DNA of 64,000 nt, from positions 1,434 through 65,433 of the forward strand of contig CAZNZK010000001.1 of NCBI GenBank assembly GCA_964577595.1, read 5' to 3'. The translations under genes were made by a program, and so were the position numbers. Positions 31,395 to 59,666 of this stretch are shown here, in pieces; the first letter of the stretch is position 1; each line of letters opens with the position of its first letter. The notes under the pieces are model-generated. The model was not told the origin of the DNA. It searched no databases and worked only from the letters and a program-made list of their open reading frames with translations. Origin of the DNA: an uncultured Candidatus Saccharibacteria bacterium. GTDB lineage: Bacteria; Patescibacteriota; Minisyncoccia; Phycocordibacterales; JAKAEA01.

Positions 31395-33305
31395 ATGCCT
31401 CCCCAGTCCTCCTCGCATTCAAAATTTGTCATATTTGTGTTGTGTGTGGTGGCGATTCTTTTGGGCGTCGTCTTCTTTTTTATTCATCAGTATTCTTCCA
31501 AGTCAGCTACTGGTGCCAGTTTGGCTACGTCCGGTCAATCGGCACTTCTTTCGGCACAAACGCAAACGGCTGTTCTGCGATGTTTTGAAAATACTACCTC
31601 AGCCCAAGTGGGCCCAATCTGCACCACAGCCACCACTGATGCCGCCGCTGAAAATCCACTCTCCCGCACCGTTGTCATTTCCGATTCGGTAGTATCCGCC
31701 AATAATATAGGGAATACTCCGGTTGAAACCGCTAACAAGCCCTCTTCTGATATTTCCGTTGTGGCACAAAAGAATTCCGTTTCCACGCAAACCACGTCTG
31801 CAGACAAAAATCCATCTGCAAATGTATCCACCCCAATTGTACCTCCAGTAAATAGTACCAGTTCTTCATCACCGGCCGACCGAGCGCCAAGCCAGCAAAT
31901 CTATACCATCACAGCCACTGCCGATGCACACGGAACTATTTCGCCTCCGGGAACGGTTACCGTGAATGCTGGTTCTTCACAAACCTACGCTCTTATTCCC
32001 AATGTTGGCTACCAAATCAACACGGTTACGATTGATGGCTTTAGCGTCACTCCTGCTGGCACCTATGTTTTTGCCAAGATTGGCGCCAATCACGCCATTT
32101 CCGTGACGTTTATTTCTATGGTGGCATACATACCTTCTGGCACATCACCGAGTGACTTAGGTACTGATACAGGGTCGCCTACGACTCCTCCCTCGGGCCC
32201 TTCCTCCGGTACTCCTTCGTCTGGGTCTGGGGAGTCTTCATCTGATACGCCTCCATCTAATAACAATACTAGCCCGGCTGATTCTCCAGCGGTTTCTGCG
32301 TTCTCCATTACTGCTTCTTCAGGAACAAACGGTTCTATTTCTCCAAGCGGCACAACAATGGTTACTGCCGGCGATTTACAAACATATACTTTTACGCCAA
32401 ACAGCGGCTATCAGGTTAATTCTGTAACCATTGATGGCGTCAATCAGGGTGCTTTACCCGCGTACACATTTTTTAGCGTTATGACCAATCATGCCCTTTC
32501 TGTTACTTTTATTCCGGCGTCGCAATCATCTTCCAATCAACAATCAAGTTCTTCCGGCTCCTCAGGATCCGGAAGTTCATCGGCTGGTGGAGGAAGTGAT
32601 TCTTCTTCTGGAAACAATGATTCTTCTTCTGGAAATTCTGGCTCTGGTTCCGGCGGCGCGTCTGCCGGAGGTCTCATTGCCTATTATCCTCTTGATGGCA
32701 ATGGTCATGATGCAAGTGGTAATGGGTACGATGCCACGCTTATTCATTCACCTCTTTTTACTGCCGGTGAATTTGGCAGAGCGGTAGAATTTAGTACTGC
32801 CGGTGCAAAATACGTTCTCTTGCCCAGTATTCTCAATTATCCAGCAGTCGCCACTACCTCTTATGCCCTCACTGTTTCGCTCTGGTTTAAAAGTACTACG
32901 GGCGATTGTCCGCTTTATTATGAAGATAATACCGGTATTGCTGGCATCCGTCTCGGTACCGACGATAAAATCTACGCCAGCGTTTTTGATCATGGTTCCG
33001 GCACTGATGAGTTGGTGACCAGTGGCACGTATACCGATGGAAAGTGGCACCACGTTGTGGACACTTATGATGGTGGCACCGAAACACTTTATGTTGATGG
33101 TGAACTTGTTGGTAGTCAGAGTGGCGTCTCCGAGCTTGGTATTACTGGCGACCCGAGCGCTCGCCTTGGAATGGGTATCGTTTGCGGCTGGCCGCATGGT
33201 AGTTGCGCTTATCATTGGCTTGATAATGGTGCCATTGACGACGTGCGTTTTTACAACCGGGCGCTTTCCGCCGCGGAAGTTATGCAACTCTATCTTGGTA
33301 ATTAA
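31395..33305 (+). CDS. Secreted/anchored protein with two divergent InlB-B-repeat-like domains, a Ser/Gly-rich linker and a C-terminal concanavalin-A-like/LamG domain
   Basis: There is an N-terminal TM helix. The repeats are YTITATADAHGTISPPGTVTVNAGSSQTYALIPNVGYQINTVTIDG and FSITASSGTNGSISPSGTTMVTAGDLQTYTFTPNSGYQVNSVTIDG. The LamG motifs are LIAYYPLDGNGHDASGNGYDA...IDDVRFYNRALSAAEVMQLY. Confidence 0.8.
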   Translation: MPPQSSSHSKFVIFVLCVVAILLGVVFFFIHQYSSKSATGASLATSGQSALLSAQTQTAVLRCFENTTSAQVGPICTTATTDAAAENPLSRTVVISDSVVSANNIGNTPVETANKPSSDISVVAQKNSVSTQTTSADKNPSANVSTPIVPPVNSTSSSSPADRAPSQQIYTITATADAHGTISPPGTVTVNAGSSQTYALIPNVGYQINTVTIDGFSVTPAGTYVFAKIGANHAISVTFISMVAYIPSGTSPSDLGTDTGSPTTPPSGPSSGTPSSGSGESSSDTPPSNNNTSPADSPAVSAFSITASSGTNGSISPSGTTMVTAGDLQTYTFTPNSGYQVNSVTIDGVNQGALPAYTFFSVMTNHALSVTFIPASQSSSNQQSSSSGSSGSGSSSAGGGSDSSSGNNDSSSGNSGSGSGGASAGGLIAYYPLDGNGHDASGNGYDATLIHSPLFTAGEFGRAVEFSTAGAKYVLLPSILNYPAVATTSYALTVSLWFKSTTGDCPLYYEDNTGIAGIRLGTDDKIYASVFDHGSGTDELVTSGTYTDGKWHHVVDTYDGGTETLYVDGELVGSQSGVSELGITGDPSARLGMGIVCGWPHGSCAYHWLDNGAIDDVRFYNRALSAAEVMQLYLGN

Positions 33306-34034
33306 TTAGGGGCGAAGCAGGGTATCTATGGCCGCTTTGAGGTTGGAATAGGGGACTGCGCCGGAAGTAATTGGTACTTTTGCCGTAGCTGTCGTTAATA
33401 CAGTAAAGGGCGTTCCTTGGGCGCCACTAGCAAGGGCGTCGTTGTATTCCCCGGTGATTTTGGTGGCATACTTGTTGCTTTCTAGGCAGGTCGTGAAATT
33501 GGCCTGATTAAGGCCAATTTGGGCCGCCAGGACGGGTAATTGGCCGGGATCAAGGCCTTGGTAGTTGAGCGCAGTAAAGTCTTTCTTGCTAAAAAGGAGG
33601 TCTAAATAGGTCCAAAAAGCAGTGTTACCACCGAGCTCGGCGGCGCATTCGGTAGCCTGTGCCTCTTTTGGTGCTTTCGGGTGAAATGCAAAGTGGCGGT
33701 AGACCCAGGCTACTTGATTAGTGCCGCTCGGGCCGTAGGTCGCCATAATTTGCTCCATGGTTTTTTGAAATTGTTGGCAGTAGGGGCAGTCGGTGTCCGC
33801 GTATTCCACCACGATAACTGGCGCATCCAAACTGCCCTGGATGTGGTCGGCGGTAGTGACGGGTGGCAGGTTGGTAATGGCGGCCCCGTTGGCGGCATTA
33901 GGTGCGAGGGAAATGGAAGAGGTGTTGGGAGCTTGTTTGATATACACGATTGCTCCCGCTACGATGATGCCTGCTACCACGATAGCGGCCGATAGTACCC
34001 AGATGATTTTATTGGAAGACGAGGGGGAGTCCAT
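33306..34034 (-). CDS. Membrane-anchored DsbA-family thiol:disulfide oxidoreductase (thioredoxin fold, CPYC active site)
   Basis: There is an N-terminal TM helix. The active-site motif is EYADTDCPYCQQF. Confidence 0.8.
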   Translation of the reverse strand: MDSPSSSNKIIWVLSAAIVVAGIIVAGAIVYIKQAPNTSSISLAPNAANGAAITNLPPVTTADHIQGSLDAPVIVVEYADTDCPYCQQFQKTMEQIMATYGPSGTNQVAWVYRHFAFHPKAPKEAQATECAAELGGNTAFWTYLDLLFSKKDFTALNYQGLDPGQLPVLAAQIGLNQANFTTCLESNKYATKITGEYNDALASGAQGTPFTVLTTATAKVPITSGAVPYSNLKAAIDTLLRP

Positions 34035-34691: not shown

Positions 34692-34731
34692 GAGGGTCAG
34701 GCACGGGTTATTAACCGGTGCCTGACCCTAG
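34692..34731. repeat. 40-nt palindromic element, copy C; it is the reverse complement of copy B at 39 of 40 positions
   Basis: Read directly from the sequence. It lies 5 nt upstream of the exonuclease ATG on the minus strand. Confidence 0.85.
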
Positions 34732-34832
34732 TTTACAATAGTTTCGGACTATCGCAATTATCCACAGGTTGTGCGTATTGCTTTTACTGCCAGTCGGCGG
34801 TATTCTGTAGTGAACAATCATTTACTTATCTC

Positions 34833-35498
34833 ATGAAAAAAATATTCACGCAATCGGTTTATAACGCTTTAGTGACCAGTGTCTGCTCGTCGCTTGTTAT
34901 CGCGAGCGTGTATGTTGCCTTTGAACCGCTTTTTGCGCAGGGCGCGACGTCTCAAACGGTTACAGTCACCCTTAACGTGACGAGCGGCGTGGCGGTGACG
35001 GTTGATTCTAATGCTATCAACATGAGCACCAACTTGAGTGTTACGCAAAATACCGCAGTTGCCACTTCTACCTTTACCGTTTCCACCAACGACAACATTG
35101 GCTACACGTTCCAGTTGGCAGCAAGCACTAATTCGGCTATGCAATCGGGTGGTAATAAAATCGCTGATTTTCCTACTACAACACCGCAAACATGGACGAG
35201 CGGTATCGGAAACCCCGATGCACGTTTCGGTTTTTCGGTTATCGGCAGTGACTTAGCTGGTCCTGCGAGTTGGTGGGGTAGCGGTAGTTATTGTAATGGT
35301 GCTAGCACTAGCACAATTTCCACGACACTTAAATATTTTGGTTTTTACACCACCGCTACTACCACGTCAAAAAATTCCAGCACAACTACTCCTTCCGGTG
35401 ACACCACTATCGTTTGCTACGCAGTTAATCAAAATAATACCTACATCCCGAGCGGCACCTACACGGCAAGCATAACAGGCACGGCTATTGCCAACTAG
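34833..35498 (+). CDS. Secreted Thr/Ser-rich protein, paralog of the 36549 gene
   Basis: There is a signal peptide. Motifs shared with 36549..37325 are GY.FQL..ST, FGFS, a Cys pair, and C-terminal GTYTASITGTAIA. Confidence 0.7.
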   Translation: MKKIFTQSVYNALVTSVCSSLVIASVYVAFEPLFAQGATSQTVTVTLNVTSGVAVTVDSNAINMSTNLSVTQNTAVATSTFTVSTNDNIGYTFQLAASTNSAMQSGGNKIADFPTTTPQTWTSGIGNPDARFGFSVIGSDLAGPASWWGSGSYCNGASTSTISTTLKYFGFYTTATTTSKNSSTTTPSGDTTIVCYAVNQNNTYIPSGTYTASITGTAIAN

Positions 35499-35539
35499 TG
35501 CGCATTGCCATTTTTGCTCGCAGGGTGTAAATTTTCTCC

Positions 35540-36541
35540 ATGAACATGATTTCATCACGCAGGGCGCTCTCGGCTCTAATTCTCTTTATTAGTGTTGCTT
35601 TTTGCGTACTTCCCACAGTTACGGCTGCCGCGCCAGCCGGCGCAGGTCCATACCACATAGACGGGCTCTCTGTGGAAAGTCGTGGCGATTTTGTGTTGGA
35701 GCCAGCTAAACAAGAGACGTTCCTCAATCCTGGTGACACTGTCACGGAAATCATTTATGTAACCGACCGTGTCCGAGGTACTACTACGTTTAGTATTGGT
35801 ATCCAGGATTTCAAGGGTACTAATGACCCTAATGCGCCCGTGGCGATAGTTCCTCCAGGCCAAAGCGGTCCCGATTCGGGTAAGGATTTTCTCAGCGTGC
35901 CGGCTTCAGAGCTCACTCTTTCTTTTGGTCAGCGGGCCACGATTCCAGTTACGGTTACTGTCCCTAAAGATGCTTCGCCGGGCGGCTATTACGCGGCCGT
36001 CCTTATTTCCAATGAGCCAACGGTGGTGGCTACTAGCTCTACTTCAGTTACCGGTGCTACTCGCGTTATCTCGCGTCTTGGCACTCTCTTTTTCATTCGG
36101 GTTAATGGTCCCGCCAATCCGCAAGGCCAATTGCAGGATTTTCGCATTAATGCACCCACAAGCCGAGCGATTTACAACAGCGGGCCATTCACTTTTGAAA
36201 TGCTTTTCAATAACACCGGCAACCTCTACCTCACGCCTTACGGCACTATTACTATTAAGAATTTTCTCGGTTCAACTATTGCCACCGTGCCGGTGGATGC
36301 CTATTATTCTTTACCACAATCATTGCGCTATCGCGATGTAAGTTGGAATCAATTTGCCTTGTTTGGCCGATATACTGCCACACTCCAGCTTAATCGCAGT
36401 TACGGCGGCACTACTGACACCAAAACCATCGCCTTCTGGGTTATTCCGTGGGAGTTTCTGTTAACCGCTTTTGCTATCCTTTTTGTTGTAATCTTCGGCG
36501 TGATTTTCTTCCTGCGAACCTTTGAAGTGCGGCGAAAGTAA
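35540..36541 (+). CDS. Secreted protein with a cleavable signal peptide and a C-terminal TM anchor followed by RRK
   Basis: The signal peptide is ...VTAAAPAGAG. The C-terminus is FAILFVVIFGVIFFLRTFEVRRK. The architecture resembles DUF916/DUF3324-type cell-surface proteins, but this is inference. Confidence 0.7.
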   Translation: MNMISSRRALSALILFISVAFCVLPTVTAAAPAGAGPYHIDGLSVESRGDFVLEPAKQETFLNPGDTVTEIIYVTDRVRGTTTFSIGIQDFKGTNDPNAPVAIVPPGQSGPDSGKDFLSVPASELTLSFGQRATIPVTVTVPKDASPGGYYAAVLISNEPTVVATSSTSVTGATRVISRLGTLFFIRVNGPANPQGQLQDFRINAPTSRAIYNSGPFTFEMLFNNTGNLYLTPYGTITIKNFLGSTIATVPVDAYYSLPQSLRYRDVSWNQFALFGRYTATLQLNRSYGGTTDTKTIAFWVIPWEFLLTAFAILFVVIFGVIFFLRTFEVRRK

Positions 36542-36548
36542 TTAAACT

Positions 36549-37325
36549 ATGAAGCAGTTTTTGTTCGCGTTCATGGCAATGACGGTGGCGATGATGCTTG
36601 TGTGTATCGCGCGTTTTTTTGTGCCTGTCGCGGTCAGGGCCGCCATGCAAAGCTCAAAGTATGCCATTCCAACCGACAGTATTAATTTCGGTGGCGGCGA
36701 CAGCACCAGCACTAATTTTAGCGAAGAAGACACACTCGGCGAAGTGGGAAGTGGTTTGGGAACAAGCACCAAGTACTCACTCAACGCAGGTTACCAGCAA
36801 ATTTCCGGTTCCAGTATTTCTTTGACGTCAGCGGCCAATGTCACTTTGCCGGCTATTGGCGGTCTTAATTCCGGCACAACTATGGCCAGCTCAACCTGGA
36901 ACGTCACGACCGATGACGCGGCGGGCTATCAGCTTAGTATTCTTTCTGCCACAGCACCCGCTTTGGTAACGCCAGCCCATGCCTATTTCGGCGATTATGC
37001 GCCGAGTGGCGGGGTAGGCTCGGCCGACTTTACTTTCGCAGTAGGTAGCGGCGCTTCCACATTCGGCTTTTCTCCAGAAGGGCCCGACATCGTCAGTCGT
37101 TTTAAAGATACTGGTTCATCCTGTGGCACTGGTTCCAGCGACACGCCCATGGCCTGCTGGGCCGGCTTTACCACCACCAGCCAAACCATCGCCGCCGGTA
37201 GTGGCTACAATTTACCCGCTGGCGCTTCTACCACGGTTGAATATGAGGCTGGCATCGGTTCCAATAAAATTCAAGACGCGGGGACGTATACTGCCACGCT
37301 CACAGTCACCGCTGTCGCGCTGTAA
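36549..37325 (+). CDS. Secreted Ser/Thr/Gly-rich protein, paralog of the 34833 gene
   Basis: There is a signal peptide. The C-terminal motif is GTYTATLTVTAVAL. Confidence 0.7.
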   Translation: MKQFLFAFMAMTVAMMLVCIARFFVPVAVRAAMQSSKYAIPTDSINFGGGDSTSTNFSEEDTLGEVGSGLGTSTKYSLNAGYQQISGSSISLTSAANVTLPAIGGLNSGTTMASSTWNVTTDDAAGYQLSILSATAPALVTPAHAYFGDYAPSGGVGSADFTFAVGSGASTFGFSPEGPDIVSRFKDTGSSCGTGSSDTPMACWAGFTTTSQTIAAGSGYNLPAGASTTVEYEAGIGSNKIQDAGTYTATLTVTAVAL

Positions 37326-37351
37326 GCGCGACAATTTGTTATGATACGGTT

Positions 37352-38500
37352 ATGAAATACCGTTTTTCTGCTTTCTCTTTTTGTGTAGTTGTTTTTGTTT
37401 TTTGCACGCCCCCTCACGTATTTGCCGCTACTGCTCAAAGCGTGTGCGTTAGTTTGTCGGTAGGTAGTACTACCGACGCGGGTGACAATTGCTCGCCGCC
37501 GGTAGCCACGTCCACACCAACCACCACACCAACCACCACGCCGGCAACACCGCCCAGTCCATCAACCGTCACCTCGCCAAGCGCGCTTGCTGGCCCGGCA
37601 ATCATCCCCAACGTTAGTGACATCACTGTGGGCTACCAGGGCAATTCGGTGGTTATCAATTGGCATAATCCAACCGACGCGGCACATTTTTCTGGCGTGC
37701 GCATCGTGCGCTCGTCCTACACCGTGCCGCTCGATCAGTTTTCTGGGAAGGTCGTGTATCAAGGTTCCGGCACGTACGCGCTTGATACGGGTGGCATTCC
37801 CGGCACGGTCTATTACTACACCGCTTTCAGTTATGACGCGGTGGGGAATTATTCCTCAGGCGCTGTCTTTTTTGCCGTCTGGCCGAGCGTCGCCCTGCCG
37901 GTAGTGCCGCAATCGCCTAATCAAACTCAAAATCAATTTCCGGTGCAGTCAGTTTTTCCGCCGCTCTTTCCGCAGACAACAAGCTCGTCGTCGCCGCTGT
38001 TACCAAGCACGGGGGGTCGGCAGCTAATTTTTTCGCTAACAGATATCTCATTCATTCAGGACGGTCGCGTGCTTCTTTTAGCGAATAGCACAATTACAGC
38101 CGACGGCACCATGCCGCTCGTTGTGGCAGTTGCCGACAGTGCTGTCGCTAGAAAAATTTCCGGTGGTTTAGCACGGGCAATGATCGCGATAAATATTCTT
38201 GGTCATGAAAGTGCCTATTTGTTGCGCGAGAGCGCGGCCGACCAGGCTTCAGAAGCTCGTCTGGACTTAACAACGGTGCCAGCCGGCGGTTATCCTTTTG
38301 TGGTGGAATTTTGGCCGAATAGGGGAGAGCCTTTCGCCGTTTCCGGTACTCTTGTGGTTACTGGTTCGTCCACTTCAACTGGTATTTTAGGTACTGGTAT
38401 AAGCTTCGCTCAGCTAGGGAAGTTACTCATCTTGCTTGCCCTATTTTCCATTTTTATTTTACTCATTCATCGCGCCCGCCGTCACCAAAACCAGGGCTAA
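37352..38500 (+). CDS. Surface protein with a signal peptide, TPTTTPTTTP linker, fibronectin-III-like domain and a C-terminal TM anchor
   Basis: The Fn3-like segment is GYQGNSVVINWHNPTDAAHFSGVRIVRSSYTVP...GTVYYYTAFSYDAVGN. The C-terminus is LLILLALFSIFILLIHRARRHQ. Confidence 0.7.
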   Translation: MKYRFSAFSFCVVVFVFCTPPHVFAATAQSVCVSLSVGSTTDAGDNCSPPVATSTPTTTPTTTPATPPSPSTVTSPSALAGPAIIPNVSDITVGYQGNSVVINWHNPTDAAHFSGVRIVRSSYTVPLDQFSGKVVYQGSGTYALDTGGIPGTVYYYTAFSYDAVGNYSSGAVFFAVWPSVALPVVPQSPNQTQNQFPVQSVFPPLFPQTTSSSSPLLPSTGGRQLIFSLTDISFIQDGRVLLLANSTITADGTMPLVVAVADSAVARKISGGLARAMIAINILGHESAYLLRESAADQASEARLDLTTVPAGGYPFVVEFWPNRGEPFAVSGTLVVTGSSTSTGILGTGISFAQLGKLLILLALFSIFILLIHRARRHQNQG

Positions 38501-38679: not shown

Positions 38680-39108
38680 ATGGAAATTTTGCAAGATTTT
38701 ATTACGGCAGGTCAGGCGGCGAAGCTCGCTGGCTATAACCCTGATTACGTCAGTCAGCTCATTCGCGCCGGAAAAATTCGCGGAAAAAAAGTCGGTAAAA
38801 ACTGGGTAACAACCCGCCATGAATTAAGCCGCTACATACAAGTAGTAGGTGGTAAGCCTTTGCCGATTATTGGCTCCGGTCAGTCGGGTAGCCGCCGTCG
38901 CAATTGGCGCGGCCGTTTCGTGAGCCCGCTGTTTGTCATTGTGGCCGCTTTCATCGCGGGCTTTTTGGCCTTGGTCGGTTTCGGTGTGTATGCGTCCATT
39001 TACAACCAGGCTTTGAGTTCTGCACAAAACGGCTCACAGGCTTCTTCTACGATGACTGGATCAACGGCCGCCGCGGGCAACATTGTCACTAGCTTGCCGC
39101 AGCTATAA
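38680..39108 (+). CDS. Membrane-anchored helix-turn-helix protein (excisionase/MerR-like HTH_17-type N-terminal domain plus one TM helix)
   Basis: The HTH region is ITAGQAAKLAGYNPDYVSQLIRAGKIRGKKVGKNWV. The TM helix is FVSPLFVIVAAFIAGFLALVGFGVYA. Confidence 0.7.
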   Translation: MEILQDFITAGQAAKLAGYNPDYVSQLIRAGKIRGKKVGKNWVTTRHELSRYIQVVGGKPLPIIGSGQSGSRRRNWRGRFVSPLFVIVAAFIAGFLALVGFGVYASIYNQALSSAQNGSQASSTMTGSTAAAGNIVTSLPQL

Positions 39109-39113
39109 AAATC

Positions 39114-42100
39114 ATGTTCTCCCGCAACAACCAACCGAACAAGATTTTCAAAACAACACTCGTGGTGTTGGCGGTGCTTGTTGCGGCCGTAACCCTTTCC
39201 CTCGCCAGCTTCTTCACGGTTGCTCGCGCCGCTATCAACCCGGAAATTAATTACCAAGGCAAACTCACCACTAACACCGGCACGCTCGTTCCGAACGGTT
39301 CCTACAACGTTGAATTCAAACTCTACACCAACACCGGCACGAACATTTGGACGGAAGATGATCTTGTTTTCAACAGTCAGGGCGTTAGCATTACTAGCGG
39401 GCTTTTCAGCATTATGCTCGGCTCCACCACCGCGTTCACCGGCGTCAACTGGAATCAGACACTCTACCTCGGCGTCAATATCGGTAGCACCACTACCAGC
39501 CCCACCTGGGACGGCGAAATGACGCCGCGCAAAATTCTCGGCACTGTGCCAGCTGCATTTGTGGCACAAACACTTAATGGTCTTTCTTCCAGCGAATTCA
39601 TGCGTTCCGATGCTACCAACTCCACTTCCACCGCGAGCACATTCTTCTCCGTAACCCAAAGCGGTGCCGGTGACATTGCGGATTTTATTGGTCAAAACAG
39701 CGCGCCGGTGCTTTACCTCCAGTCCGGCGGCAGTGTTGGCATCGGCACCTCGTCGCCCTGGACTGCGCTTTCCGTGAAAGGCGCCAGTGACCTCGGTAAT
39801 TTTGCTCAAGCCGGCTACTTCGTTGGCACCACTACCGCAACATCAACCCTCGCTGGGGGCTTGCAAGCACTCGCGCTTAACATCACTTCTTCCACGGCTA
39901 GTTCCACATTTGGTAACGGTATCAATTTAGCGAAAGGTTGCTTCTCAGTCGCTGGTACTTGTCTTACTCAGTCTGCCAACTACTGGACTTCTGCTGGCGG
40001 CAACATCTACAACAACACCGGCACCAATGTTGGCATCGGCACCACTACACCGAATTGGAATTTGCAGGTAGCAGGCCAGAGCCCGGTGATCGCCCTCACC
40101 GACACTGGCGCGCCCGCTAATCAACAACACTGGTTCCTGGAAAGTCAGAATGGGGGATTCACTATTGGCACGAGTAGTAATAATCTCTCAGCCACCACCA
40201 CGTATTTGCGTTTTGACAATACAGCCAGCCGCAACAACACAGCTGTTGGCTTCACCGCGCTTTCGGCGGTGACCACCGGTTCGGCCAACGTTGCTCTCGG
40301 TTATCAGGCGGGTCAAGCTGTCACTGGTGCTTTTGATCAGACGCTTGTGGGTTATCAAGCTGGTTACAACACCACCAATAACACTAGTCAGCAGAATACT
40401 TTCCTTGGCTATCAGTCAGGTTTCAATAACACGACGGGTGCTTACAACACGGCTGTTGGCTCTGCCGCTTTTGCCGCCGGTTCCACTGGCAGTTACAACG
40501 TCCTTGTCGGCGCCAGCGCCGGCTACGGTTTTGCTACGTCTGGCTCCAATTCAAATAACGTCATTATCGGCTACAACGCTGTCGGCGGCGCGGCCGCGGC
40601 TTCCACGGGTAACGATACCGTTGTCGGTTATCAAGCTGGTTATACTCTCAATGGCGGCAACAACAACACGTTGTATGGTTTTCAAACTGGATACGGCCTT
40701 TCAAGCGGCGCGAATAATATTTTCCTTGGCTATCAAACCGCTTCCACCACAAGTAGTGGTTCCAATAATATTGCCATCGGGTATAACATTAATTTACCGA
40801 GCGTTAATGGTTCCAATCAATTAAATATTGGCAATATTTTGTACGGTACAGGGTTGACTGGCTCCCTCACCACTTCTGCTGGCGCCATTGGTGTCGGCAC
40901 GAGTAGCCCATGGGCAACACTTTCTGTGCAGGGTCCGGCGCAAAGCACGAGCCCTCTTTTTGCCATCGGCTCCACCACGAACGCAACTCTCTTCGCTATT
41001 CTGGCTAACGGCTTTGTCGGCATCGGCACGAGCACGCCGGCCAGCGAATTAGCGGTGAGCGGCAATGTTTCCATAAAAGAAACCGCAAATAACAACAACT
41101 GGCTTACGCTTTACAACGCTATTGGTAGCACCACTGGCATTATTCGCGAAAATAGCGGCTCTGGCTCCGGTGGCATTTCAATCCAAGGATTCCGTTCCGG
41201 TGGCAATGGTCAGGCCTTGGCTTTTTACGGCAAAGTACTCAAAGATGACGGCACTGAAGTAGCCGGATCTCTGTTTGATGTTATGCAAGGCACTACGGCT
41301 GTCGGCACTACTGGCAACAATGTCACCAACACCCCGATTGCCGCATTTTGTAATAATTACGAAGGCGGTCTCTTCAGTGCCACCACCACCTGTAAAGTTA
41401 TCTTCAGTGCCGCTGGCAACGTCGGCATCGGCACCACCTCGCCCTGGACTACGCTCTCCGTCAACGGCTCAAGTGACCTCGGCAACTTCGCCCAAGCTGG
41501 CTACTTCATTGGCACCACTACAGCAACGTCAACTCTCGCTGGTGGCTTGCAAGCACTCGCGCTCAACATTACCTCAACAACCGCGAGCTCAACCTTTGCC
41601 AACGGCATCAACCTCGCCAAAGGTTGCTACGCTATCGGTGGTAGTTGTTTGAACGTCAACAACTTCTGGACATCGCTCAGCGGCAATATCTACAACAACA
41701 CCGGCACTAACGTTGGTATTGGTACTAGCACACCGAATGCCTCGCTCTTTGTCACCACGGCTGGTCAGCAAAACGGTAGCTCGCCGCTCTTTACTGTGGC
41801 TTCTACCACTGGCGCCTCACTTTTCACCGTGCTTGCCAACGGCAATGTTGGCGTTGGCACCAGCTCTCCATATGGCGCGCTCGGTATGAATGGCACGGTA
41901 GATGCCACGGCCTTCATCGGTAATGGCGCTGGCCTCACGCAGCTTACCGCCGCTGGCTCGTTGGGCGGTATACAATTTAATGACACCCTCATTCTTAATT
42001 CGGACACTATCAACCAGCCGGGTATTAATGACTCTAGTTACAACGTCACTTCTTTTGTTGTTGCGCACGGTTCCCGCTTCAGTATTGGTAACATAGTTAA

Positions 42101-45100
42101 GCAAGAAGCCAGTACTCCAGAATTAATGCTGGTTACGGCCGTTAGTGGCAACACACTCACGGTCTTCAGGAATTATCCAACGGGAGCTTACCCAACGGGT
42201 CGCTCCCAGCTCCTGAATAACGAAGTGTTGGATATCGTCGCACTTAATCAATTTAATTCCGATGCTACGCTTACGTGGGATAATATCAATAAGCGCTTGG
42301 GCGTTGGCACGACCACATTTAGTGGTAACACCATTTTGGCTATCGGCGGTGTAGCGGCCAATAACAATATTGGTTTGAGTCTGGAGGATGGAGGTGTCTC
42401 ACAAGGGTCACTCGTGCTTGATAACACTGATCAGGTTCTGCTTAGTGCTACGAACGGCTCAGGTTACAACAACATTATTCTTAGCGGTGCGAATATTACT
42501 CTGAATGGAGGCCTCAATTCTGCCACCCTTGATCAAAACGGCACCTTTAATGTCGGCGACCTAGTTGACGGTGGCCAAATCACCGTTGGCGGTGCTACGG
42601 GTGTTGGCGCAACGCTTACCGCAACCGAATTAACTTTGGGGGTTGACGATACAATTACTGCGAATGCTGGCTTTGATGGGGGGCTACTCTTTAATAACGA
42701 CAATACTACTGGTTATCAGTGGGAGTCTAATAATCTTTCCATCGCCACACTTGGTTCTACCGGCAATCTTGCCGCCTCTGGCACCATCGCCGTGCAGGGC
42801 ACTGGCACGAGCACGTTTGCTGGCGGCCTCGCCGCAAACATTTTTAACGCTACTTCTGCGACCGCAAGTTCCACCTTTGCCAACGGCATCAACTTAAAGA
42901 ATGGTTGCTACGCCATCAGTGGCGCTTGTATCGGCACCGGCGCGGCAACACTCACTGGCGGCGTGGCTGGCGCGCTCACGTATTGGACGGGTTCTGGCAC
43001 TGTGGGCGCCACCACATCGCCAACGTTTAATGCTTTCTATGCCACCTCAACCACGGCCACCTCCACCATCGCTGGTGCCCTCACTATTGGCTCGACCAAT
43101 ACCAACATCTACCCCAACGCGCCACTTATTCTGACAGGCAACGTCAATAATGCCAGCCAGTTTGTAATGCAAAATTTGAGCAATGGCAGCAATGCCTCGG
43201 CCGATTTGATCGTGGGTGCTGACCTCATGAACAACAGCTCGTATTACGGCGACCTTGGTTACAACAGCTCTGCTAACACTGCTAGCGCGTACACTGGCTT
43301 TGCCGCTAACGACCTCTATCTCTATTCCAGTGACAGTAATCTTGACTTGGCCGCCGCAAGCACTACCGGCCCCGCCAGTATCAACTTCCTCACGGGCGGC
43401 ACTTTGGCGGCGAATGTCCGCATGACCATTGGCAATACCGGTAACGTCGGCATCGGCACTACGAGCCCCTACGCCCGCCTCTCTGTGTGGGGAGCAAACG
43501 CTCTTTCCGGCAGTAATCTTTTCCTGCTTGCCAACAATGCTTCAACGACACTCTTCGCGGTTGATGGCGCCGGCAACGTAAACATTCCTGTGGCGACTGC
43601 CACCACCACTATCGCTGGCGGCTTTGATGTCGGCAACGGCTCGCTCCACTATGAATCGTCCACCGGTCAAACTAATATCAGCAATCTCCAGATAGGGGCT
43701 CTTTCATTCCCGAGCGATTCCGGTGTGCTCACTTGGGCCGACATGCCGGTGACCACGGCTTCAGCCATGGGCACGCTGGAAAGTTACAGTGCTAACATTG
43801 ATGGTAGTGTTCTTTTGACAATTGCGGCGCAGGCAGATGGCTTGGGCGGTATCCAAAACGCCGGTATCGGTATCGGTACGACGAGCCCGATGGCCACCTT
43901 AGCCGTTCAGGGGTTGACCGGTACCACAACGCCGTATCTTTTTGCCGTTGCTAGTTCCACGGGGCAAACATACTTAACTATTGATAATAACGGCACTACT
44001 ACAATTCGGGGAAACTTGGTTGTCTACGGTAATATCGTTCCAGGAAACACGGATACGTATAGTCTTGGTACGGCTTCTTCTACGACGGAATGGAAGAGTT
44101 TGTACGTGGCAACCTCAACGATTTATTTGGGTGGGACGGCCGTAAGTATCAGTAATGGTAGTTTGCTCGTGGGCGGTAATCCGGTGACTGGCGGCGGAGC
44201 CACCACTGAGAAATGGGCAACATCTACCGATCTCACCTCTATATATACCAATACCGCCACCAAAATTGGCATCGGCACGTCGTCGCCTTGGGCAACCCTA
44301 TCCATCACCGGTTCTTCCGATCTTGGTAACTTTGCTCAGGCTGGATACTTCACAGCAACAAGCACGACTGGCACTAGCTATTTCGCGGGCAAGGTTGGTG
44401 TTGCTTCCAGTACTCCTTACGCGAATCTCTCCGTTTCCAGTCTTTCTCAACAAGTTGGCACTTTGCCGCTCTTCCAGGTTGGTAGCACCACTAACGCTTC
44501 GCTCTTTAATGTTCTTGGCAACGGCAATGTCGGCATTGGCACCACTTCACCGTATTCATTCCTTTCAATTCAGACGCCATCCAGTTTTGCCGGTCAGATT
44601 ATTGATATCTCCACCAGTGCTGGCGCGTCACTTCTCCATCTAACGAACGCTGGTAATCTTGGCCTTGGCACCACTTCGCCGTGGAGCACCTTCTCCGTCA
44701 AAGGCTCTTCCGACCTCGGCAACTCCGCTTTGGCCGGCTACTTCACGGGCACCAGCACAGCAACCAGCACGTTCACCGGTGGCCTCGCCGCAAACATCTT
44801 CAACGCTACTTCTGCGACCGCCTCTTCCACCTTCGCCAACGGCATCAACCTTACGAACGGTTGCTACGCCATTGCGGGCACTTGTTCCACTATTGGTTCC
44901 GGCTCTGCTGGCTGGTTGTCATATTACGCCGGTACTGGCCAGGCGCTTACCGCCACCTCTTCCATCTTCCTTGCTACTAGCGGCAACGTTGGTGTCGGTT
45001 CTACCACGCCCTATGCCACGCTTTCCGTTTCCACCCCTGGCCAACAAATTGGCACCCTGCCGCTCTTCCAGGTCGCCTCAACCACCAAGGCCGCCATCTT

Positions 45101-46640
45101 CAGTGTCTTTGGCAACGGTCTTGTTGGCATCGGTAGTAGCACGCCATGGGCATCGCTCGGTATCTCTACACTCGCCCAGCAAGCTGGCACGCTGCCGCTC
45201 TTTAGTGTGGCTTCTACGACAGGCGCACAAATCTTCACGGTTACGGGCAACGGCACGTTTACCTATGGTGTCAACTCAACGTCCACCATTCCTAACAACA
45301 CTACTGGCGCTTGGATAATTTCTACCTCAACAGCCGCCAATGCCACACCGCTCTTTAGGATTGATACAACGACCAATGCTGAAAAAATTGTCCTCGGCAC
45401 AGCCTCGAGTAGCGACGTGATTATTGGCGATAACGGCATTTCACCCAACCTCGTCTTCTACAACAGTGGCACTATCAAGGGCTTTACCAGCGGCGGTTCA
45501 ACCATCACACTCGGTTCCGGCAACGACATCATCAACTCCGCGGTCAAATTCGGCATCGGTTCTACCAGCCCGTGGCGCGCACTTTCCGTTAACGGCACGG
45601 CCGCCTTTACCGGTCTTACATCTTCGGTTACTGGCACTGCGGTATGTATCGCCGCCGGCACGGGTGAGCTCTTGAACTCTGGCGGCTCTAGCTGTACGCC
45701 GTCATCAATTCGTTTCAAAGAAAACGTCAACACACTAAGTCCGGGCTTTGCTCTTAATGAGCTTGATGAATTACGCGTGGTCTCTTTTGATTACAAGCCC
45801 GGCGATTATCCTACGTGGGATAGCCCGCATTCTTACGGTATGATTGCTGAAGAGGTTCAGCAGATTGACCCAACCTTGGTAGATTATGGTAGCGATGGTC
45901 AGCCCTTCTCCTTGCGCTTTGAAAAAATCACCGGTCTTACTGTGCAAGCCATTCAGGAATTGAATTTGAATTTGGAGACAATCGCTTCCACTACTGCAAG
46001 CACGACGCCGGAATCACAAGGTTTTGCCAGCGCCTTCTTCGGTAATTTGTTCCACCAAATCAGCACCTGGCTGGCCAGCACCACTAACGGCATCAGCGAC
46101 CTCTATGCCACTGTCTTCCATAGTAATGAAGTAGATACTAACAAGCTTTGCGTTGGCACAACCTGCGTTACGCAACAGCAATTTATGGCGATGGTAAATG
46201 CTTCAGTCAATAATGGGGGAGGTTCGTCTGGTACCACTTTTAGCGGATCTAGCGTCGGCACCGGTAGTACAAGTGGAACAACGGGTGGCACTACTACGAC
46301 AGCTGGCACCACAACCACGGCCACGAGTACCGACACAACCACGAGTTCGGGTACTGGTTCGGACACGGCCACAACCACTCCCGTGACCACGACAGGTGGG
46401 GGTGATTCTGGCACGACATCCGCCACAACAACCGATACTACAACTAACACAACAACCGGCGACACGAATACTAATCCGGCTACGCCGACTACCGATACAA
46501 CCACCACAAGCACCGACACCACATCCACCACTAATACAACCAGCTCAACTGACACCACGAGCGCAACCGATGCGTCCACACCAGCGCCAACAACTCCCGC
46601 GCCCAGTTCTGACACAACGAGCCCAACCACGACACCATAA
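39114..46640 (+). CDS. Giant (2508 aa) tail-fibre-like surface protein: signal anchor, conserved N-terminal INYQGKLT module, many repeats of the (N)VGIGT(T/S)SP(W/Y)..LSV type, a C-terminal peptidase-S74-like intramolecular chaperone (CIMCD) domain, then a ~140-aa Thr-rich tail
   Basis: The N-terminal TM helix is followed by AINPEINYQGKLTTNTGTLVPNGSYNVEFKLY. The repeat unit ...GIGTSSPWT.LSV.G.SDLGNFAQAGYF.GTTTATST... recurs. A Ser-Lys dyad, SSIRFK, is encoded at 45702-45719. The region around that dyad through DELRVVSFDYKPGDY...GMIAEEVQQIDP resembles the endosialidase CIMCD. The T-rich tail spans about 46210-46637. Confidence 0.9.
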   Translation: MFSRNNQPNKIFKTTLVVLAVLVAAVTLSLASFFTVARAAINPEINYQGKLTTNTGTLVPNGSYNVEFKLYTNTGTNIWTEDDLVFNSQGVSITSGLFSIMLGSTTAFTGVNWNQTLYLGVNIGSTTTSPTWDGEMTPRKILGTVPAAFVAQTLNGLSSSEFMRSDATNSTSTASTFFSVTQSGAGDIADFIGQNSAPVLYLQSGGSVGIGTSSPWTALSVKGASDLGNFAQAGYFVGTTTATSTLAGGLQALALNITSSTASSTFGNGINLAKGCFSVAGTCLTQSANYWTSAGGNIYNNTGTNVGIGTTTPNWNLQVAGQSPVIALTDTGAPANQQHWFLESQNGGFTIGTSSNNLSATTTYLRFDNTASRNNTAVGFTALSAVTTGSANVALGYQAGQAVTGAFDQTLVGYQAGYNTTNNTSQQNTFLGYQSGFNNTTGAYNTAVGSAAFAAGSTGSYNVLVGASAGYGFATSGSNSNNVIIGYNAVGGAAAASTGNDTVVGYQAGYTLNGGNNNTLYGFQTGYGLSSGANNIFLGYQTASTTSSGSNNIAIGYNINLPSVNGSNQLNIGNILYGTGLTGSLTTSAGAIGVGTSSPWATLSVQGPAQSTSPLFAIGSTTNATLFAILANGFVGIGTSTPASELAVSGNVSIKETANNNNWLTLYNAIGSTTGIIRENSGSGSGGISIQGFRSGGNGQALAFYGKVLKDDGTEVAGSLFDVMQGTTAVGTTGNNVTNTPIAAFCNNYEGGLFSATTTCKVIFSAAGNVGIGTTSPWTTLSVNGSSDLGNFAQAGYFIGTTTATSTLAGGLQALALNITSTTASSTFANGINLAKGCYAIGGSCLNVNNFWTSLSGNIYNNTGTNVGIGTSTPNASLFVTTAGQQNGSSPLFTVASTTGASLFTVLANGNVGVGTSSPYGALGMNGTVDATAFIGNGAGLTQLTAAGSLGGIQFNDTLILNSDTINQPGINDSSYNVTSFVVAHGSRFSIGNIVKQEASTPELMLVTAVSGNTLTVFRNYPTGAYPTGRSQLLNNEVLDIVALNQFNSDATLTWDNINKRLGVGTTTFSGNTILAIGGVAANNNIGLSLEDGGVSQGSLVLDNTDQVLLSATNGSGYNNIILSGANITLNGGLNSATLDQNGTFNVGDLVDGGQITVGGATGVGATLTATELTLGVDDTITANAGFDGGLLFNNDNTTGYQWESNNLSIATLGSTGNLAASGTIAVQGTGTSTFAGGLAANIFNATSATASSTFANGINLKNGCYAISGACIGTGAATLTGGVAGALTYWTGSGTVGATTSPTFNAFYATSTTATSTIAGALTIGSTNTNIYPNAPLILTGNVNNASQFVMQNLSNGSNASADLIVGADLMNNSSYYGDLGYNSSANTASAYTGFAANDLYLYSSDSNLDLAAASTTGPASINFLTGGTLAANVRMTIGNTGNVGIGTTSPYARLSVWGANALSGSNLFLLANNASTTLFAVDGAGNVNIPVATATTTIAGGFDVGNGSLHYESSTGQTNISNLQIGALSFPSDSGVLTWADMPVTTASAMGTLESYSANIDGSVLLTIAAQADGLGGIQNAGIGIGTTSPMATLAVQGLTGTTTPYLFAVASSTGQTYLTIDNNGTTTIRGNLVVYGNIVPGNTDTYSLGTASSTTEWKSLYVATSTIYLGGTAVSISNGSLLVGGNPVTGGGATTEKWATSTDLTSIYTNTATKIGIGTSSPWATLSITGSSDLGNFAQAGYFTATSTTGTSYFAGKVGVASSTPYANLSVSSLSQQVGTLPLFQVGSTTNASLFNVLGNGNVGIGTTSPYSFLSIQTPSSFAGQIIDISTSAGASLLHLTNAGNLGLGTTSPWSTFSVKGSSDLGNSALAGYFTGTSTATSTFTGGLAANIFNATSATASSTFANGINLTNGCYAIAGTCSTIGSGSAGWLSYYAGTGQALTATSSIFLATSGNVGVGSTTPYATLSVSTPGQQIGTLPLFQVASTTKAAIFSVFGNGLVGIGSSTPWASLGISTLAQQAGTLPLFSVASTTGAQIFTVTGNGTFTYGVNSTSTIPNNTTGAWIISTSTAANATPLFRIDTTTNAEKIVLGTASSSDVIIGDNGISPNLVFYNSGTIKGFTSGGSTITLGSGNDIINSAVKFGIGSTSPWRALSVNGTAAFTGLTSSVTGTAVCIAAGTGELLNSGGSSCTPSSIRFKENVNTLSPGFALNELDELRVVSFDYKPGDYPTWDSPHSYGMIAEEVQQIDPTLVDYGSDGQPFSLRFEKITGLTVQAIQELNLNLETIASTTASTTPESQGFASAFFGNLFHQISTWLASTTNGISDLYATVFHSNEVDTNKLCVGTTCVTQQQFMAMVNASVNNGGGSSGTTFSGSSVGTGSTSGTTGGTTTTAGTTTTATSTDTTTSSGTGSDTATTTPVTTTGGGDSGTTSATTTDTTTNTTTGDTNTNPATPTTDTTTTSTDTTSTTNTTSSTDTTSATDASTPAPTTPAPSSDTTSPTTTP
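39753..40055 (+). repeat. Intragenic ~300-nt direct repeat, copy 1 (about 85% identical to 41439-41737)
   Basis: Read directly from the sequence. A third, more diverged copy lies at about 44270-44420. Another pair lies at about 42830-42900 and 44770-44860. Confidence 0.7.
41439..41737 (+). repeat. Intragenic ~300-nt direct repeat, copy 2
   Basis: This copy aligns with 39753-40055 nearly codon for codon. Confidence 0.7.
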
Positions 46641-58691: not shown

Positions 58692-58694
58692 TTT

Positions 58695-59666
58695 ATGTAT
58701 TCACTTTTTACTGCCCACATACCATTTCTCGCCGTACTCATCGCGGGTTTTTTCCTGTGGTGCTACATAGTAGCCAGCTCGGTTGAGTTCGGTCTATCGC
58801 TCCTCATTCTATTTCCGCGGCTCGCTGGCGAGCGCTCGTTGCTGGTCATAACAATTTTGAATCCAATATGGGAAGTGAATAATGTCTTTTTGGTCGGCTT
58901 TTTTGTGTCGCTTTTCGCCTTTTTCCCTGGTTTTGTGCCGTGGCTTACAATCACACTTTTTACGCCGCTCTGCATTTTTGTAGCAGTGAGTGGTGCGCGC
59001 ATTTTGCTCGTGCTCGTATTCTTTTATAGCTCATGGGAATGGCTTAAAAAGTCGCTAGTAGTACGCTCCGCATTTGCTCTATGTTCTTTTGCTGGCCCAG
59101 TGTTATTGGCAGTGGGCGCCGTTGCTGTACTTACGGGCATTGCTCCAAGCCTCTGGCCCGCATCATTTTTCTGGCTGGTGGCAGCAGCGGTGTGTGTTGC
59201 CCTTTCGTCACTTGCCGCTTTTGCTGGGTTGTTTGGTCGGAAAACTTTTGGTGATGTGGCGGTTATTGCCTATGCCGCCAGCGCCATTTGGTTCTTTAAA
59301 ATGTTGCCGTTTTACATGCCGTGGGTTTCCATCACCCACCCACAGTTTCTTTCCAGTGCTTTTACCTGGACCTCACTACTGCTTGTTGCGGCCCTGGCTC
59401 TTGTTTTTGCCGGTCGCCTAGTGCGCCGGCCCGCAATTGCCTTTACTGGCTTAGCGGCCGTAGCCGGTATCCTAATCATCTTCGTAGCGGCCTTGCAGCA
59501 GCCTTATTTGGCATATCCATTTGTGTCAGCCGCCAGCGCTTTCACGGCTCTTGCTACGGCTAAAATTCTTTTCGGGGCTTTTGCGGGAGGTTCTGTGATT
59601 TTAATTCCCAGCATCCTCCTGCTCTACTGGCTTTTTGTGTTTAATAAAAAACCGGTTGTTTTATAA
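58695..59666 (+). CDS. cydB: Cytochrome bd-type quinol oxidase subunit II
   Basis: It lies 4 nt after cydA. It is a polytopic protein of 323 aa. Confidence 0.65.
   Translation: MYSLFTAHIPFLAVLIAGFFLWCYIVASSVEFGLSLLILFPRLAGERSLLVITILNPIWEVNNVFLVGFFVSLFAFFPGFVPWLTITLFTPLCIFVAVSGARILLVLVFFYSSWEWLKKSLVVRSAFALCSFAGPVLLAVGAVAVLTGIAPSLWPASFFWLVAAAVCVALSSLAAFAGLFGRKTFGDVAVIAYAASAIWFFKMLPFYMPWVSITHPQFLSSAFTWTSLLLVAALALVFAGRLVRRPAIAFTGLAAVAGILIIFVAALQQPYLAYPFVSAASAFTALATAKILFGAFAGGSVILIPSILLLYWLFVFNKKPVVL

Follow-up and report, generated by a model that had tools for sequence, protein, structure and literature searches.

The 64,000-nucleotide (nt) stretch of DNA analysed here (the window; part of the 250-kb metagenomic contig CAZNZK010000001.1 of assembly GCA_964577595.1) carries at positions 34833-38500 a conserved cluster of four genes, g1 to g4. 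We interpret this cluster as the minimal gene set for a thin surface fibre, a donor-strand pilus assembled with a chaperone but no usher by an ultrasmall monoderm bacterium of the candidate phyla radiation (CPR), i.e., a compact variant of the Pam pilus, and we put the probability of this reading at roughly 0.6. CPR bacteria are monoderm, and neither an usher nor any other trans-envelope machine is part of the reading. The four genes are as follows:

g1, 34833-35498, forward strand: open reading frame (ORF) of 221 amino acids (aa); putative major (shaft) pilin with a single domain
g2, 35540-36541, forward strand: ORF of 333 aa; predicted membrane-anchored PapD/WxLIP-like chaperone
g3, 36549-37325, forward strand: ORF of 258 aa; putative PamT-like tip subunit
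g4, 37352-38500, forward strand: ORF of 382 aa; putative PamR-like terminator and anchor

The Pam pilus was described in Ca. Mycosynbacter amalyticus from filaments resolved by cryo-electron microscopy (cryo-EM; Troman et al. 2026, bioRxiv 10.64898/2026.03.03.709456). In the cryo-EM structure, the pilins PamA/B have two domains, and the C-terminal truncated immunoglobulin (Ig) domain accepts the donor strand of the next subunit. According to the same work, the tip pilin PamT has one domain and lacks a donor strand, PamC/D are PapD/FimC-like chaperones with a C-terminal transmembrane (TM) helix, and PamR (an RbmA-like protein with two fibronectin type III (FnIII) domains, an N-terminal strand, and a TM helix) was proposed as both filament terminator and anchor; a 'tail fibre-like protein' was co-localised with the pam operons. 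The Pam pilus is a closer match to our cluster than the csc/WxL clusters of Bacillota (CscA-D, Siezen et al. 2006, PMC1534035; WxLIP, Hassan et al. 2023, PMC10599100) with which the initial annotation had compared it, and g1 to g4 map one to one onto Pam parts.

The basic layout given in the initial annotation, i.e., four closely spaced genes on the same strand, all with signal peptides, was confirmed. The intergenic gaps of g1/g2, g2/g3, and g3/g4 are 41, 7, and 26 nt, and one N-terminal hydrophobic segment, corresponding to a signal peptide, is present in each product. A second, C-terminal hydrophobic segment was found in g2 and g4 only, followed by RTFEVRRK in g2 and by HRARRHQNQG in g4. 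All four products are compositionally biased. For comparisons between genomes, a one-genome-per-species scan yielded 100 matching stretches, 80 loci of which were kept; ORFs were called in these loci and searched with the four window proteins. The 83 loci that we count comprise the 80 independent species-level loci and three re-fetches of the window's own contig (L001-L003). The same-strand order g1-g2-g3-g4 was observed in 71/83 loci and the other 12 are truncated by contig ends, i.e., the order was kept in every locus not cut in this way. Among the 71 ordered loci, 61 were plain, nine contained a tandem g1 duplicate, and one (L066) had an additional g1 copy after g4. Across all loci, one or two copies of g1 lie directly upstream of g2 (two copies in L017, L022, L027, L028, L031, L042, L056, L069, L072, and L082). 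Gene order was unchanged while g2 identity dropped to 38%. The co-conservation of g1-g4 is far above chance, and this strict synteny at falling g2 identity therefore strongly supports the operon that the initial annotation had inferred.

The named g2 relatives come from Paceibacterota, Parcubacteria, Taylorbacteria, Nomurabacteria, and similar lineages, all of which fall into the Parcubacteria group of Patescibacteria. We note that many operon-bearing records of metagenome-assembled genomes (L005, L010, L011, and ~25 more) are titled 'uncultured Candidatus Saccharibacteria', and that a few (L029, L063, L073) are titled Burkholderiales, Bdellovibrionales, or archaeon. These odd-titled records interleave with Paceibacterota, Taylorbacteria, and Nomurabacteria in the g2 tree, so record titles are unreliable for taxonomy. 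None of the cluster proteins is currently named in public sources, and the tip-subunit (g3) family alone comprises 680 clusters at 50% identity.

Sequence comparisons support homology of g3 to PamT. The protein consists of a signal peptide (aa 1-32), three S-x-N-Y-x-[LIM] repeats (aa 33-89; 36645-36815), and a pilin domain (aa 90-258; 36816-37322). The repeat module is highly conserved and constitutes the region matching PamT. Specifically, g3 matched the NCBIfam model CPR_pilus_PamT (NF058579) with E = 3.4e-10 and 39.7 bits over profile positions 6-129 of 241, and the same model was matched by 70/70 g3 relatives (best E = 2.6e-17), with all scores far below the 240-bit equivalog cut-off, so that equivalog membership is not supported. 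Many g3 homologs (P0271-P0337) are longer (450-670 aa, and one of 2187 aa) and carry the g3 module at the C-terminus behind a variable N-terminus composed of LamG/ConA-like lectin, DUF2341, or Gly-rich (Gly_rich_2) modules; examples are L054:1521-3044 and L055:7980-9383. The window g3 itself was called as 250 or 258 aa by different gene callers.

The second gene encodes a putative chaperone with a firm link to the csc clusters. In its product, the signal peptide is followed by two beta-sandwich domains of Ig type (aa 39-159 and 179-301), a TM helix (aa 304-327), and an invariant cytoplasmic tail F-E-x-R-R-K; this agrees with the signal peptide, C-terminal TM helix, and RRK noted in the initial annotation. 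The AlphaFold2 (AF2) model of g2 (predicted local distance difference test (pLDDT) 89.8) has two beta-sandwich domains and the TM helix; the loop at aa 160-178 is of low confidence and leads into a conserved segment, IISRxGxLFF. Using Foldseek, the best match in the PDB was 9i25_C/9i1y ('WxLIP from E. faecium locus A bound to long WxL'; E = 1.2e-12), followed by RbmA and then by the chaperones CfaA, CsuC, Caf1M, FimC, CupB2, and DraB (E = 1e-9 to 1e-6). At the sequence level, 12/53 g2 relatives matched PF06030 (DUF916; best E = 1.4e-8), with the window g2 alone giving a sub-threshold match to WxLIP_PGBD (DUF916; E = 0.19). The g2 family profile matched the solved EfmWxLIP1 of E. faecium in the PDB (E = 3e-5), and hhalign gave 94.4% (E = 9e-8, 132 columns) with a WxLIP profile compiled from clusters of enterococci, lactobacilli, Listeria, and Vagococcus. 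Because the PF06030 family matches, the PDB profile, hhalign, and Foldseek agree, g2 is a true distant homolog of WxLIP/CscA (DUF916).

The initial annotation had expected anchored partners of DUF916/DUF3324 type, and this expectation was borne out for DUF916 in g2 but not for g4. DUF3324 (PF11797) had no sequence match in g2, where the hhalign alignment to WxLIP spans the first domain only; the Foldseek alignment to 9i25_C extends over 276 columns and covers both domains. The other anchored protein, g4, is an FnIII protein with a TM helix, not of DUF916/DUF3324 type. In a published AF2 model of WxLIP with WxL, a disordered WxLIP hairpin becomes a strand that completes the WxL beta-sandwich, which is donor-strand complementation. 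By analogy, the g2 loop at aa 160-178 is a candidate for the complementing strand of the chaperone. We also observed that the cytoplasmic tail F-E-[FV]-R-R-K (window 36521-36538, aa 328-333), with F328 and E329 invariant in 53 relatives, is conserved beyond the need of a simple positive-inside signal, and that an I-P-W motif just before the TM helix is near-invariant. One relative, P0284, is an apparent g2-g3 fusion (WxLIP_PGBD at 62-156, g3 module at 329-577).

We were able to confirm the proposed paralogy of g1 and g3 both by BLASTP (32% identity over 161 aa, E = 2e-10) and by comparison of the family profiles (100% probability, E = 1.6e-39), in which g1 53-221 is aligned to g3 90-258. Among the blocks that the initial annotation listed as common to the pair, FGFS and the C-terminal GTYTA(S/T)(I/L)T.TA(I/V)A were recovered, whereas GY.FQL was not (GYTFQL in g1, GYQLSI in g3; the family block is GYxLx[VI]). 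Similarly, one Cys pair is present in each paralog, and one pair per pilin domain is conserved in the g1 and g3 families, but only the first Cys aligns (g1 C154 = g3 C192), the partners C195 of g1 and C203 of g3 lying at different positions. The g1 product begins with a signal peptide (~aa 1-37) and an N-terminal extension (aa 41-52), followed by a beta-sandwich pilin domain (aa 53-221) with Cys154/Cys195.

An AF2 monomer model of g1, built from a 25-sequence alignment (pLDDT 85.7), has a single beta-sandwich. Its best PDB fold match was the PapGII pilin domain (E = 7e-4) and its second-best the TasA fibre (8aur; E = 1.8e-3), with PapE, CsuA/B, FimF/G/H, and PapA among the others; in the model, the fold of g1 is the truncated Ig of pilins and resembles a Pap/Fim pilin domain. 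Two of these structures, the PapG pilin domain and PapE, also served as comparators for PamA/B (Troman et al. 2026). In addition, g1 matched the NCBIfam model CPR_Pam_pilin_C (NF058581) weakly but end-to-end (E = 0.0018; 18.4 bits vs. a cut-off of 55; profile 2-147 of 148). The g1 signal peptide contains a conserved Glu-Pro (aa 31-32, window 34923-34928; 87% and 71%), located ~6 residues ahead of the site at which cleavage is predicted. Sec signal peptides do not usually have this feature, and a gene for a dedicated peptidase was not found close to g1.

In the initial annotation, g1 and g3 were likened to WxL-like proteins, with the Trp of the C-terminal motif replaced. This could not be upheld. 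The WxL model PF13731 was not matched among 70 g3 relatives, and the window g1 had no Pfam match when scanned alone, its relatives not having been scanned against Pfam as a family. Neither the g1 nor the g3 family profile matched WxL chains in the PDB, and hhalign of g1/g3 against 9- and 82-sequence WxL profiles gave probabilities of 1.5-2.7%. When the g1/g3 profiles were restricted to the domains (signal peptides and linkers trimmed), the WxL scores were 15.3-15.4, compared with 16.7-17.1 for a reversed WxL control, i.e., the resemblance is at chance level. The only stretches that align to WxL (GYxLxV vs. GWxLxV, and YTATITVT vs. YxTTLTW) were not significant. A WxL-domain identity of g1/g3 was rejected on the basis of Pfam, PDB profiles, hhalign, and the reversed-profile control. 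As for the csc-type cluster as a whole, the parallel in component architecture and the CscA-like g2 stand, but WxL domains in g1/g3 are not supported.

For g4, the initial annotation had named a T/P linker, an Fn3-like domain, and a C-terminal TM anchor, all of which were found. The protein consists of a signal peptide, an N-terminal strand, a Thr/Pro linker, one FnIII-like domain (~aa 85-185), and a further beta-rich region that is followed by a TM helix (aa 355-373; 38414-38470) and a basic tail. Pfam models of fn3 type were matched by 42-43/62 g4 relatives, and the family profile matched tandem-FnIII structures with E down to 8e-18. Most relatives have two FnIII domains; in the window g4 there is one, with the Thr/Pro linker in place of the first. 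The start of g4 is disputed between annotations. NCBI, ENA, and Logan give 290 aa (start ~37628) and add an antisense gene of 62 aa that is spurious; the JGI call is 382 aa (37352). We favour the 382-aa form because the shorter one lacks both the signal peptide and the conserved N-terminal strand.

The N-termini of g1 and g4 share a strand motif, as listed below:

putative donor strand of g1, QTVTVTLNVTSG, 34953..34988 (aa 41-52), forward strand: right after the signal peptide, with the family motif D-x-V-[VI]-V-T-L-x-V-x-x-G
N-terminal strand of g4, SVCVSLSVGS, 37439-37468 (aa 30-39), forward strand: right after the signal peptide

In 66 relatives of g1, the conservation of the strand is 89% for V43, 77% for V45, 95% for L47, 100% for V49, and 98% for G52, and in the AF2 monomer model aa 41-52 are unpacked from the domain (pLDDT ~64). 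The g4 family motif, [IV]31-x-[VI]33-x-L35-x-V37-x-G39, matches the g1 strand (V/I at 33 in 94%, L35 in 87%, V37 in 85%). The V-x-V-x-L-x-V motif is absent from the g3 family. Donor-strand exchange predicts a strand in the shaft and in the terminator and none in the tip, and the pattern in g1, g4, and g3 fits all three predictions. Based on sequence, we infer that the motif in g1 and g4 would act as the donor strand. We also found that the central Leu is replaced by Gln in g1 and g4 of the same genomes (68 L/L, 8 Q/Q, and 1 mixed). The Q genomes form one clade, so this co-variation represents a single event; it is suggestive and is not used as statistical proof, its value as independent, replicated evidence being ruled out by the single Q clade.

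Taken against the Pam pilus, the cluster shares a design that is CPR-specific, Sec-exported, and without an usher or trans-envelope machine. Its g3 is homologous to the PamT tip pilin, the g1 domain resembles the truncated Ig C-terminal domain of the Pam pilins with its paired cysteines, and g2 (two beta-sandwiches, TM helix at 304-327) resembles the PapD/FimC-like chaperones with a C-terminal TM helix. The g4 family corresponds to PamR as an FnIII-type, TM-anchored terminator with an N-terminal strand, although the window g4 has one FnIII domain, and the giant protein encoded downstream of g4 (see below) would be the counterpart of the nearby tail-fibre-like gene. The two systems also differ. 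PamA/B/E are two-domain pilins of 39-55 kDa in which the donor strand is the inter-domain linker, and none of the examined loci has a gene for a two-domain pilin in the cluster. A single pilin type is encoded here (sometimes duplicated) vs. three in Pam, and one chaperone vs. two. The tandem g1 duplication in about ten genomes may be a possible start of a pilin diversification like that of PamA/B/E. All matches here are below the NCBIfam cut-offs, no PDB sequence match was obtained in this comparison, and no NCBIfam chaperone or anchor model was matched. The lineage is different as well (the Parcubacteria group/Paceibacteria here, mainly Saccharimonadia and Microgenomatia for Pam). The Pam preprint text mentions neither Paceibacteria, Parcubacteria nor WxL/DUF916 (bioRxiv 10.64898/2026.03.03.709456).

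The likeness to the csc clusters goes beyond the homology of g2 to CscA/WxLIP, which share a signal peptide, a DUF916 Ig-like domain, a second Ig-like domain, a C-terminal TM helix, and a length of 320-380 aa. The local order (small secreted protein, WxLIP-like protein, second paralog) is the same in the fetched Bacillota clusters. Like CscB, the small paralog g1 occurs once or twice; g3 resembles CscC in being large in many relatives, with a variable N-terminus and often a ConA-like lectin; and g4 is a fourth, anchored component, like CscD. A WxLIP strand is likewise predicted to complete the partner's sandwich. The differences are that neither the two Trp-x-Leu motifs nor the D-x-R-G block occur in g1/g3, which also show no signal with WxL profiles, that DUF3324 is undetected by sequence here, and that the anchor g4 is a TM/FnIII protein, whereas CscD is very short, LPxTG-anchored, and sortase-dependent. 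No LPxTG was found in g4 or any other cluster protein, and no sortase in the window or its flanks. The host is a CPR bacterium and not a member of the Bacillota.

Compared with the chaperone-usher pili (Pap, Fim, Csu, Caf1, CFA/I), the cluster has in common the two-domain chaperone fold in g2 (CfaA, CsuC, Caf1M, FimC), the incomplete Ig-like pilin fold in the g1 model (PapG pilin domain, PapE, CsuA/B, FimF/G), an N-terminal extension with alternating hydrophobics, and a tip subunit without this extension. It differs in having no usher and no outer membrane, in a chaperone that is membrane-tethered rather than soluble, in a terminator that is also the anchor, and in the lack of detectable sequence homology to chaperone-usher components. 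An usher-like gene was found in neither the cluster nor the window, which rules out a chaperone-usher pilus. Other pilus types were rejected as well: a sortase-dependent pilus by the lack of LPxTG and sortase, a TasA/SipW system by the lack of a SipW-type peptidase and a TapA-like nucleator in the window or its 10-kb flanks, and a type IV pilus by the lack of a pilin-like N-terminus and of an ATPase nearby.

In the assembly that we propose, all subunits would be exported by Sec, and g2, which its C-terminal helix would keep in the cytoplasmic membrane, would lend a strand to the incomplete Ig-like fold of the exported g3 and g1. Assembly would start with g3 as the distal tip, a placement that g3 would take exclusively because it has the pilin domain but lacks a donor strand and, in many relatives, carries a lectin-like head. 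Copies of g1 would then add successively, each using its N-terminal V-x-V-x-L-x-V strand to displace the chaperone strand from the previous subunit, and growth would end when g4 inserts the same kind of strand. Since g4 is membrane-anchored via FnIII spacers and a TM helix, it would both cap the fibre and hold it at the cell. A host cell or a surface would be contacted by the fibre, probably with participation of the giant protein, which resembles mosaic adhesive trimer (MAT) and tail-fibre proteins. The tandem g1 duplications would fit a major subunit, and the lectin-headed long forms of g3 would fit a tip adhesin.

This reading needs to be taken with caution, considering that a number of our observations weigh against it. 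The g1 fold matches to chaperone-usher pilins are modest (E = 7e-4 to 0.1; template modelling score 0.45-0.54), and only 2/66 g1 relatives reach E < 0.01 with the Pam pilin C-domain model, at 18 bits vs. a cut-off of 55. The g3 match to PamT covers the N-terminal half only and is far below the equivalog cut-off. The correspondences of g2 to PamC/D and of g4 to PamR rest on architecture and fold and not on alignment. Moreover, g1 is single-domain (~185 mature residues) with its donor strand N-terminal as in classical Pap/Fim, the ATP synthase genes reported beside pam operons are absent from the 64-kb window, and all the Q genomes in the co-variation described above fall into one clade in the neighbour-joining tree of g2, with one later mismatch (L071). 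The closest solved relative of g2, WxLIP, has been interpreted in the literature as a stable surface platform and not as a chaperone. Gene content, conservation, homologies, folds, and the common strand motif are direct results of the analysis, whereas polymerisation of g1, the assembly order, the part played by each strand, and the attachment function are an extrapolation on our part, and the g1 and g2 models are of monomers.

These last points bear on an alternative in which the four proteins form a static surface complex of csc/WxL type. In such a complex, g2 would permanently hold one g1 and one g3 by strand complementation, g4 would be an accessory anchor, and the assembly would bind a substrate or host directly, in line with the attachment role suggested in the initial annotation. 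This would be consistent with g2 being a true WxLIP homolog that has WxLIP as its best structural match, with the crystal structure 9i25 of a stable WxLIP-long-WxL complex, and with the four-component parallel to CscA-D, including the ConA-like lectin heads on the large paralog; it also draws on the fact that we infer polymerisation rather than demonstrate it in this analysis. However, g1/g3 lack any WxL-domain signal, g3 has a homolog in the tip pilin of a filament whose structure is known from cryo-EM, the modelled g1 folds like pilins that polymerise, and a static complex offers no reason for the N-terminal strand motif that g1 and g4 have and g3 lacks. We consider it the main rival, but fairly unlikely. 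The strand motif also bears on the possibility that the pilus likeness only reflects how common Ig-like folds are, and that g1-g4 are unrelated Thr/Ser-rich secreted proteins such as wall or S-layer components or enzyme scaffolds. It is true that Ig-like and FnIII folds are very common, that several of our matches are below curated cut-offs, and that the cluster proteins are compositionally biased. Yet the strand motif common to g1 and g4, the match to PamT in 70/70 g3 relatives, the relation of g2 to WxLIP by three methods, and strict synteny over a deep divergence (g2 down to 38%) all speak against this explanation, which we regard as very unlikely.

A further possibility is a matrix fibre resembling TasA or the bundling pili, with chaperone-free donor-strand self-assembly of g1, in which case g2 and g4 would be unrelated surface proteins that share the operon. 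TasA (8aur) was the second-best fold match of g1 (E = 1.8e-3), one g2 relative weakly matches a model of SipW-dependent matrix proteins, and the conserved Glu-Pro in the g1 signal peptide is unusual. Against this, chaperone-usher pilin domains dominate the g1 fold matches, and neither a SipW-type peptidase nor a TapA-like nucleator is encoded in the window or the 10-kb flanks. Moreover, g2 has a chaperone fold and is found in all loci as a strict single copy between the two pilin genes, as would be expected of a dedicated partner; such a fibre appears very unlikely. The chaperone-assisted pilus remains our preferred reading.

A broader and more speculative view, which we hold to be somewhat unlikely, is that Pam pili and csc/WxL clusters are two branches of one ancient monoderm system. 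In this system, a PapD-like tethered chaperone (CscA/WxLIP = PamC/D = g2) would assemble strand-exchanged chains without an usher, running from the chain anchor (CscD/PamR/g4) through small subunits (CscB/Pam pilins/g1) to a large, lectin-headed tip (CscC/PamT-like/g3). If this were true, the Parcubacteria operon would represent the minimal version, in which the correspondence can be recognised, the csc/WxL clusters would gain a concrete and testable assembly mechanism after 20 years, and the origin of chaperone-assisted donor-strand pili would precede the usher.

The conserved cluster extends past position 38500 to a giant fibre gene, with an optional member in between:

g5, 38680-39108, forward strand: HTH_17/excisionase-like protein of 142 aa with one TM segment; optional cluster member
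giant Thr/Ser/Gly-rich fibre protein, 39114-46640, forward strand: 2508 aa; conserved partner downstream of g4

The N-terminal residues 34-200 of the giant protein were found at 47-70% identity, on the same strand and downstream of g4, in 61 loci, at a distance of 70-900 nt from g4 except for three loci with ~2.1-2.2 kb. This N-terminal domain is non-repetitive and better conserved than the pilus genes, and the mature N-terminus, INxQINYQGKLT, is near-invariant. We ruled it out as a donor strand or pilin domain, given that it differs from the g1/g4 motif and had no PDB sequence match. A C-terminal Peptidase_S74 (intramolecular chaperone) domain was detected at aa 2197-2256 (E = 6.5e-9), and the protein matched Bdello_MAT_N weakly (E = 1.2e-6; 28 bits vs. 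a cut-off of 60). It shares with the MAT fibres of Bdellovibrio (Caulton et al. 2024, PMC10769870) a conserved N-terminal domain, a long variable fibre, and an organism that must recognise other cells, and it differs from them in being below the family cut-off, much larger, and more repetitive; a link to a pilus operon is not described for MAT proteins. The giant protein is likely a host-binding fibre.

The optional g5 lies between g4 and the giant gene in 33/61 loci (median gap 185 nt), and in the window it ends 5 nt upstream of the giant gene. Its product matched HTH_17 (E = 1.8e-5) and TIGR01764 excise (E = 2e-4) and has a TM segment at aa 85-103; a role as a membrane-tethered regulator is possible. 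HTH genes are likewise found next to Bacillota WxL clusters (L087-L089).

With regard to transcription of the cluster, two kinds of sequence signals were detected:

two overlapping sigma-70-like promoter matches, 34711..34761, forward strand: in the 128-nt gap upstream of g1; 9/12 matches each, which is weak evidence
9-bp GC-rich hairpin, 37313..37333, forward strand: pattern match that overlaps the g3 stop codon, just before g4; the count of such hairpins is within shuffle expectation

Promoter-like sites in the region numbered nine compared with a shuffle expectation of 5.4 +/- 2.1, which is not clearly above it. The hairpin is possibly a partial terminator or attenuator between the pilin and anchor genes and may lower expression of the anchor relative to the pilins. 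Because the promoter and terminator counts are within shuffle expectation, we do not draw a firm transcript structure. An Rfam search of the window returned one tRNA only and no RNA element tied to the cluster.

Several genes in the wider neighbourhood were also noted. Three large secreted LamG/ConA-like proteins flank the cluster (window 20587-24564, 31395-33305, and 48323-50533), one with PG_binding_1 and two with sub-threshold 'TafC family fimbrial protein' matches through the LamG region; the lectin type is that heading the long g3 forms in other genomes. A DsbA/thioredoxin-like secreted protein is encoded directly upstream on the reverse strand (33306-34034) and would suit the pilin Cys pairs. 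This gene adjoins the cluster only in the closest relative, L004, so it is outside the conserved cluster. Further away, cytochrome bd oxidase subunits I and II (PF01654, PF02322) are encoded at 57393-59666, beside a K_trans potassium transporter. Their presence on a Patescibacteria contig is worth noting because CPR genomes usually lack respiratory components. At 840-2504 there is a restriction-modification pair (N6_N4_Mtase and an RE_EcoO109I-family endonuclease).

Few CPR lineages are as abundant, or as poorly understood, as Parcubacteria/Paceibacteria, and little is known about their attachment to hosts. The cluster provides a concrete and widely conserved candidate attachment organelle for this group, present in at least 80 species-level genomes, and extends the Pam pilus beyond the lineages in which it was reported. 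Its tight linkage to the gene of a giant MAT/tail-fibre-like protein suggests that hosts are recognised by an apparatus of two parts. Given its simpler design compared with Pam (single-domain pilins, one chaperone, and one anchor), the system should be easier to reconstitute. Finally, through the kinship of g2 with WxLIP/CscA, a CPR pilus is connected with the WxL/csc clusters that lactobacilli, enterococci, and Listeria carry and that are still unexplained; this suggests strand complementation in those clusters too.

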